The translations under genes and the position numbers were made by a program. Below, one piece after another: positions 11,090 through 11,584 of a DNA stretch of 44,355 nucleotides (position 1 is the stretch's first letter; each line of letters starts with the position of its first letter). Origin of the DNA: Escherichia coli (GTDB taxonomy: Bacteria > Pseudomonadota > Gammaproteobacteria > Enterobacterales > Enterobacteriaceae); NCBI RefSeq assembly GCF_044324785.1, contig NZ_CP172130.1. The stretch is one strand, 5' to 3'. The notes under the pieces were generated by a model. The model was not told the origin of the DNA. It made no database searches and saw only the letters and a program-made list of their open reading frames with translations.

Positions 11090-11091
11090 CT

Positions 11092-11373
11092 TTACAGCAC
11101 GTACAGGAGTTCGAGAAGTTGCTTAAACGTCATAACTGTCGCGGTCTGTTTTGCCATACCGGGAAAACCGGCGCAGGTTCAAAATCTGTCAGTATTGCCA
11201 GTGAACGGATGGAGATTATCAGCGGCCAGCGCCTGATAGATTTGCTCACGCCCGGTAGCTCCTTCACTATCGCAACCGCCCCGCAGACGATGATGAAGCG
11301 TACCGCAGCAACGCTAGAAACGAGCACCATTGTTAAAGATGCCGGTAAAGAAAATCGATACCATGAGAGTTAA
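11092..11373 (+). pseudogene. 3' fragment of an unidentified gene truncated by IS26
   Basis: Open frame running in from the IS26 boundary with no start codon (…GKTGAGSKSVSIASERMEIISGQRLIDLL…), ending at TAA 11371..11373. Confidence 0.3.
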
Positions 11374-11377
11374 TTAA

Positions 11378-11575
11378 ATGAAGTCAGTAACTATAGAAGC
11401 AAAAACATTTGCTGAAATGTTAGGAATAACAGAAGGTGAGTTAATCTTTGCCATTAAGAAAACTGGCACATTCAAAAACAAGACAATCCCACAACCTCAT
11501 GAGCCACATAAATCAAATAATAGATTTTTATATTCAGACGTAATGAGGTTTATAGAATCACTAAAAGACAAATAG
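11378..11575 (+). CDS. Hypothetical small protein (65 aa) in the segment trapped between two IS26 copies
   Basis: ORF begins 5 nt after the preceding fragment; AT-rich; no recognised domain. Confidence 0.3.
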   Translation: MKSVTIEAKTFAEMLGITEGELIFAIKKTGTFKNKTIPQPHEPHKSNNRFLYSDVMRFIESLKDK

Positions 11576-11584
11576 AACCGGTAA

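Follow-up and report, generated by a model that had tools for sequence, protein, structure and literature searches.

A remnant of IncN plasmid backbone between two IS26 copies in an Escherichia coli IncX1 plasmid

IS26 pseudo-compound transposons and translocatable units, as described by Harmer, Moran & Hall 2014 (PMC4196232) and Harmer & Hall 2016 (PMC4894685), consist of directly oriented IS26 copies interspersed with unrelated segments. When a translocatable unit is incorporated beside a resident IS26, the original 8-bp repeats come to flank the enlarged structure (PMC4894685; PMC4196232), a signature that has been shown experimentally for R388::IS26 (PMC4894685). In the experimental products R388::Tn4352 and Tn6026, the sole 8-bp duplication likewise lies at the outer ends (PMC4894685). 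IS26 has also built mosaics of IncN and IncX1 DNA that include a 2,780-bp integron fragment, and the same IS26-bounded fragment is present in pYUHAP5-2 and other plasmids (PMC7843705). Here we describe a 495-bp segment enclosed by two IS26 copies in a 44,355-nt stretch of DNA from Escherichia coli (assembly GCF_044324785.1, contig NZ_CP172130.1), referred to below as the window, to which all coordinates refer. The structure has its sole 8-bp duplication at the outer ends, as the experimental products do, but its inner segment, in contrast to those of the published IS26 units, is non-selectable backbone debris and not a resistance gene. We consider it about 90% probable that the 495 bp are a hitch-hiking remnant of IncN plasmid backbone that was brought in by IS26 together with a resistance fragment, and that they represent neither a functional unit nor the trace of a lost cargo.

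Origin of the 495-bp segment

The 14-bp terminal repeat of IS26, GGCACTGTTGCAAA, has six matches in the window, with 0 expected by chance, and these six repeats define three 820-bp copies of the element. All three copies are mutually identical and in direct orientation, with an intact tnp26 open reading frame (ORF) on the minus strand, and are 100% identical to copies annotated as encoding the IS26 transposase WP_001067855.1. The interval between copies 1 and 2 is 11090-11584, or 495 bp, exactly as delimited in the initial annotation, and it is bounded by two complete, directly oriented IS26 copies in which both the terminal repeats and tnp26 are intact. The features on which the argument rests are the following:

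10270..11089, minus strand: IS26 copy 1, 820 bp, defined by its terminal repeats, with tnp26 listed at 10322-11044
11017..11373, plus strand: chimeric 118-amino-acid ORF from the ORF list, running from IS26 into Δmrr
11090..11373, plus strand: Δmrr, the 3' 284 bp of the 642-bp IncN mrr-like gene, 100% identical to R46 and pRSB203
11378..11575, plus strand: orf65, an intact IncN backbone gene for a 65-amino-acid protein (WP_000844102.1), annotated in R46, pRSB203 and others
11577..11584, no strand: ACCGGTAA, where the R46-type IS26 insertion targeted IncN DNA, uninterrupted in pRSB203
11585..12404, minus strand: IS26 copy 2, defined by its terminal repeats, identical to the other copies
15185..16004, minus strand: IS26 copy 3, defined by its terminal repeats, identical to the other copies

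All 495 bp are 100% identical to, and colinear with, positions 821-1315 of the IncN reference plasmid R46 (NC_003292), and are identical to pRSB203 as well. There is no internal scar, and the segment is contiguous IncN backbone throughout. PLSDB contains 1,548 plasmids that match it, the match covering 80% or more of the segment in 1,286, and most of them are conjugative plasmids of the IncN type. It also matches 359 complete E. coli records, in which 363 of the 374 places are on plasmids. By these comparisons, of the kind that the initial annotation had proposed for finding the parent locus, the segment is IncN plasmid backbone from the mrr-orf65 region. The description of the segment as an orphan with the end of an unidentified gene therefore has to be dropped, as the gene is an annotated IncN mrr-like restriction endonuclease gene and the whole segment is found unchanged in R46.

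The likeness to R46 extends beyond the segment itself. The adjoining IS26 is identical too (R46 region 1-1315), and the right junction, in which GAACCGGTAA is followed directly by GGCACTGTTGCAAA, is the R46 junction, with the same sequence and the same IS26 orientation. In pRSB203 the uninterrupted site reads GAACCGGTAATGACTCC, and the junction of ACCGGTAA with IS26 is present in about 129 PLSDB plasmids. R46 differs in having a complete 642-bp mrr that runs on to kikA and the tra genes, whereas in the window mrr is cut at nucleotide 359 by a second IS26, and the replicon is IncX1. At this left junction IS26 is followed by CTTTACAG, the junction string being ACTATTTGCAACAGTGCCCTTTACAGCACGTACAGGAG. 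This left junction has no exact match in PLSDB or in 5,426 complete E. coli genomes, and neither JGI metagenomes nor a GTDB set with a single genome for each species contained it. This previously unrecorded junction of IS26 with mrr nucleotide 359 is the sole new feature of the segment. Junctions were counted with short junction-spanning queries; a 1,095-bp query made up of the segment and 300 bp of IS26 on each side was uninformative, as a single downstream IS26 satisfies both of its IS26 parts.

The IS26 array in Tn2 and its counterparts in other plasmids

The window appears to be a complete IncX1 plasmid, with the replication gene at 1-855, and its backbone (replication gene and transfer region) is 100% identical to that of IncX1 plasmids, including 38.6-kb blaTEM plasmids. 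It is not an IncN replicon, as only the 495 bp are IncN backbone. The three IS26 copies, with the two segments that they enclose, form an array that interrupts the tnpA gene of Tn2:

7345..10269, minus strand: 3' 2,925 bp of the Tn2/Tn3-family tnpA, cut by IS26 copy 1, colinear with pCL011-2
10262..10269, no strand: left 8-bp target-site duplication AAATATCG, from the overlap of the flanks in intact Tn2
12405..15184, no strand: incomplete class 1 integron, 2,780 bp, 100% identical to pO189_X1
within 12405..15184, no strand: Δ3'-CS (truncated 3'-conserved segment) and attI1 of this integron fragment, from the integron comparison
12494..13315, minus strand: lnu(F), gene call
13447..14238, minus strand: aadA2/aadA17-like gene, gene call
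14387..15184, plus strand: ΔintI1, gene call
16005..16012, no strand: right 8-bp target-site duplication AAATATCG, from the overlap of the flanks in intact Tn2
16005..16093, minus strand: 5' end of Tn2 tnpA, which resumes from 10269 past the array, from the comparison with pCL011-2

In the IncX1 plasmid pCL011-2, which has an intact Tn2, the 3,006-bp tnpA gene occupies 12921-15926 of the stretch compared and starts at 15926. Window positions 10000-10269 correspond to 15576-15845 of that stretch and positions 16005-16300 to 15838-16133, the two flanks overlapping in the intact Tn2 by exactly 8 bp (15838-15845). The inner flanks, CTTTACAG with ACCGGTAA and ACTTGACC with CCGTAGAA, are unmatched, and an 8-bp duplication is thus present at the outer ends of the array only. 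The junction of Tn2 tnpA with IS26 at AAATATCG (10240-10299) occurs in identical form in PLSDB plasmids of E. coli, Salmonella and Klebsiella, eight in all. Two of these, the IncX1 plasmids AR_0061 unitig_2 and pFUJ80154-2, continue with IS26-phsABC-IS26 and have lost the right half of Tn2. Because the junction is found in eight other plasmids with different neighbours, a lone IS26 appears to have been resident first, and its distribution argues that the insertion at AAATATCG is older than the array. This resident IS26 seems to serve as a reusable landing pad.

The same IncX1 backbone is found in a 44,362-bp Salmonella plasmid from Thailand (NZ_CP104480.1). We considered and rejected the possibility that this is the same molecule as the window: its integron fragment is inverted, aac(3)-IId replaces the IncN relic, and the IS26/Tn2 junctions are different. 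It looks like a sibling that was rearranged by IS26.

Over 4,916 bp, window positions 11090-16005 align with pO189_X1 (NZ_MW077913) without a single mismatch or gap. In that plasmid mrr is complete, and the IS26-integron-IS26 unit lies between orf65 and dcm/ecoRII in an IncN backbone, with ACCGGTAA duplicated on either side. The 495 bp are therefore the end of the backbone alongside the resistance fragment in its IncN setting. Plasmid pYUHAP5-2 (NZ_CP060136) is 99.08% identical to the same part of the window, carries an aadA22 variant, and has the same boundaries of the 2,780-bp fragment. In both of these plasmids the IncN backbone carries on on both sides, whereas in the window only 495 bp of it are left and the array is located in Tn2 tnpA.

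Similar arrangements were found in other replicons. The IncHI2 plasmid pLWY24 (NZ_MT318677), over the 7.3-kb stretch compared, has IS26, a 1,208-bp relic, IS26 and then Δ3'-CS-lnu(F)-aadA, and window positions 11090-14384 are 100% identical to it; pESBL3312-IncR (NZ_MW390552) has IS26, a 1,496-bp relic, IS26 and blaCTX-M-1. Both share with the window a direct IS26, an IncN relic that ends with ACCGGTAA, a second IS26 and a resistance segment, but they differ from it in their intact mrr, their host replicons, and a left IS26 that is 2 nt off the copies in the window. The 495 bp of the window, the relics of 1,496 and 1,208 bp just described and two further ones, of 584 and 243 bp, have the right junction in common and form nested left-end truncations. 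The 584- and 243-bp relics are carried by IncI and IncHI2 plasmids from Taiwan (NZ_CP083499.1 and NZ_CP100690.1); their left cut is made, at two different positions, by the inverted repeat at the tnpA end of Tn2 and not by IS26, which suggests that adjacent deletions in this same module were mediated by Tn2.

In R46-type IncN plasmids, IS26 lies directly downstream of the mrr-orf65 pair at ACCGGTAA, and in plasmids of the pO189_X1/pYUHAP5-2 type that IS26 is the first of the two that bracket the 2,780-bp ΔintI1-aadA-lnu(F) fragment. This stretch recurs unchanged in the window, from the backbone tail through IS26 and the integron fragment to the next IS26, and is joined to another IS26 that lies in Tn2 tnpA. 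In an earlier step, IS26 would have inserted in Tn2 tnpA of the IncX1 plasmid, duplicating AAATATCG. In one possible route (a), this resident IS26 and an IncN or IncN-derived replicon would then have formed a cointegrate by the copy-in reaction, with CTTTACAG within mrr as the target, and recombination between direct IS26 repeats would have removed the remaining IncN DNA. In another (b), a circle with the 495 bp, IS26, the integron fragment and IS26 would have been freed when IS26 made an intramolecular deletion in the donor, and this circle would have been inserted beside the resident IS26 by the targeted conservative reaction of Tnp26 or by RecA. Both are known IS26 reactions (PMC4196232, PMC4894685, PMC4471558), and either would lead to what is observed: three IS26 copies in direct orientation, inner segments free of flanking duplications, and the original 8-bp repeats placed at the outer ends. 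It is equally possible that a longer relic was acquired and trimmed later by an IS26 adjacent deletion.

Several points weigh against this account of a hitch-hiking IncN remnant, or at least against its details. Routes (a) and (b) and later trimming fit the present data alike. An IncN plasmid proper need not have been the immediate donor, a role that a mosaic with the IncN stretch may have filled; that stretch is already found in IncX1, IncHI2, IncI and IncR mosaics. The order of segments among identical 820-bp repeats rests on the assembly and, with the left junction missing from the collections searched, no direct precursor or sibling can be demonstrated.

Alternative explanations

The alternative that fares best, although we regard it as unlikely, is that the whole three-IS26 structure (10270-16004) was built elsewhere and reached Tn2 tnpA in one piece, moving as a pseudo-compound transposon by the formation and resolution of a copy-in cointegrate, AAATATCG being duplicated at that moment. 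The perfect 8-bp duplication round the array is what such a move would yield. However, the insertion of IS26 at AAATATCG is shared with the eight plasmids mentioned above, where it has other neighbours (such as phsABC in IncX1), and the junction of IS26 with mrr nucleotide 359 is in no other replicon in the collections searched.

We give very little credence to the suggestion of the initial annotation that an independent translocatable unit left IS26-495 bp-IS26 as its footprint, its real cargo having been lost or gone unrecognised. Formally, a 1,315-bp translocatable unit would indeed leave two direct IS26 copies round a short segment (PMC4894685), and the part of the suggestion that attributes the placement of the segment to IS26 activity stands. 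The loss of cargo does not: the segment consists solely of contiguous IncN backbone that is 100% identical to R46 and has no scar, and the segment, the next IS26 and the integron fragment are contiguous here just as they are in pO189_X1 and pLWY24. Because 11090-16005 is contiguous and identical in pO189_X1, the cargo is the adjoining lnu(F)-aadA fragment, which is still present. The nested relics of 1,496, 1,208 and 495 bp likewise point to variable trimming of backbone and not to gene loss.

Equally improbable is an assembly artefact, in which the 495 bp would come from a co-resident IncN or IncN-derived replicon and would have been misplaced through the identical 820-bp IS26 repeats. Such an error would fit with the presence of three identical IS26 copies in 5.7 kb and with a left junction seen in the window alone. 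Yet a truncated mrr that abuts the end of IS26 must be in the reads and cannot be made by misjoining, equivalent IS26-relic-IS26-lnu(F) structures are present in independently sequenced plasmids, and the order as assembled agrees fully with the outer duplication and with the match in gene order to pO189_X1.

Contents of the segment and significance of the remnant

The open frame without a start and the ORF of 65 codons that had been noticed in the segment are both there. Δmrr keeps nucleotides 359-642 of mrr, that is, codons 121-213 plus the stop; its frame is in register from 11092, the protein ends with KDAGKENRYHES, and the stop codon is at 11371-11373. Within the segment this frame lacks a start codon. 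The 118-amino-acid ORF at 11017-11373 begins at an ATG (11017) within IS26 that is by chance in frame, antisense to the 5' end of tnp26. It is listed because this in-frame ATG happens to lie in IS26, and it is a junction artefact, a chimera. Automated annotation may label it "restriction endonuclease", as it did for the truncated copy in NZ_CP083499.1.

The full 642-bp gene is annotated in R46 and pRSB203 as "restriction endonuclease" or "type IV restriction endonuclease Mrr", and its 213-amino-acid product contains the Mrr_cat domain (PF04471) at residues 62-172, with a score of 74.6 bits. The Δmrr fragment covers only positions 64-115 of the Mrr_cat profile and scores 20.3 bits, under the 21-bit Pfam cut-off; half of the domain is gone. 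A working Mrr-like type IV restriction endonuclease gene should have a complete Mrr_cat and its own start, and Δmrr has neither. No promoter or terminator was found by a consensus scan of 10950-11700, nor was a hybrid promoter seen at the IS26 end, where, as read by eye, the terminal repeat provides TTGCAA without an acceptable -10 box 16-18 bp downstream. Because half of Mrr_cat and the start are missing, and a promoter-like site was not found upstream, Δmrr is, judged by its sequence, a dead, non-functional remnant.

The full-length protein has some features of its own. In the R46 copy, residues 5-52 give weak, sub-threshold matches to SLATT_3 and DUF4381, which places these matches in the N-terminal ~60 residues, and in PADLOC the protein matches both mREase_IV and PDC-S02, a candidate defence family. 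This IncN protein may be more than a plain Mrr nuclease.

The second gene, orf65, is a 198-bp hypothetical gene that follows mrr after 4 bp in R46 and in the IS26-free IncN plasmid pRSB203. Its product has nothing significant in Pfam, NCBIfam or PHROGs. It does not reach the profile threshold for HTH_17, MerR or Phage_AlpA, HTH_17 being matched with an E-value of 0.044 at best and only in two of its distant relatives, and the PADLOC model mad1 gives a weak match (E 4.5e-4). Its homologues form a small family, almost all of them near-identical IncN copies, with about nine distant proteins of 55-73 amino acids besides. An AlphaFold2 model built on the homologue alignment has a mean predicted local distance difference test (pLDDT) score of 88.3, and DSSP assigns to it a strand, two helices, a short strand region and a final helix. 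The best and commonest Foldseek matches in the PDB are winged helix-turn-helix proteins of the MerR type (MerR N-terminal domains, CbpM, NmlR and RacA) and the excisionases RdfS and GIsul2, with TM-scores of 0.5-0.64 and probabilities up to 1.0; the best E-value is 0.03, none is at or below 0.001, and a few unrelated chains are also among the matches. The model thus suggests that orf65 encodes a small, stand-alone, probable DNA-binding protein with a MerR/excisionase-like winged helix-turn-helix fold. Nothing in the segment suggests that orf65 is expressed here, as the upstream operon context is lost and a recognisable promoter was not found.

In two relatives, P0024 and P0035, the orf65 sequence runs straight into Hha-like sequence (PF05321), and one JGI record gives an orf65 copy the name "hemolysin expression modulating protein". 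It seems that orf65 is followed by an hha-like gene, or fused to one by a frameshift, in a related plasmid lineage.

Were orf65 useful, for instance as a recombination directionality or regulatory factor for IS26-mediated rearrangement or plasmid gene expression, IS26-495 bp-IS26 could be a live minimal translocatable unit kept for the predicted action of this protein on DNA, to the benefit of the plasmid or of IS26-mediated recombination. The gene is intact, and whole even in the shortest relic (243 bp), and the confident model with its MerR-type and excisionase-type matches would suit such a role, but we find this the least credible of all the alternatives: orf65 is whole in every left-trimmed relic because it adjoins the fixed right junction, a matter of geometry for which no function is needed, and it has no promoter-like site, no family match above threshold, and only Foldseek E-values of 0.03 or more.

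The segment is accordingly best described as a remnant of IncN backbone, a relic of an already known kind and an ordinary by-product of IS26 activity. It is recurrent debris, to judge from the same architecture with other relic lengths in other replicons, and it reveals no new mechanism, gene function or type of element. This is essentially the known IS26-adjacent backbone fragment of no functional interest that the initial annotation had named as the outcome that would speak against its proposal. Its suggestion that the origin of the segment could indicate the donor replicon proved sound, as the segment retains R46's own junction of orf65 with IS26 and marks a donor of the IncN type. The value of the segment is forensic only: it shows that this IncX1 plasmid took its lnu(F)-aadA fragment from DNA once located in an R46-type IncN backbone, and relics such as those of 1,496, 1,208, 584, 495 and 243 bp are markers with which this IS26 module can be traced among IncN, IncX1, IncHI2, IncI and IncR plasmids.
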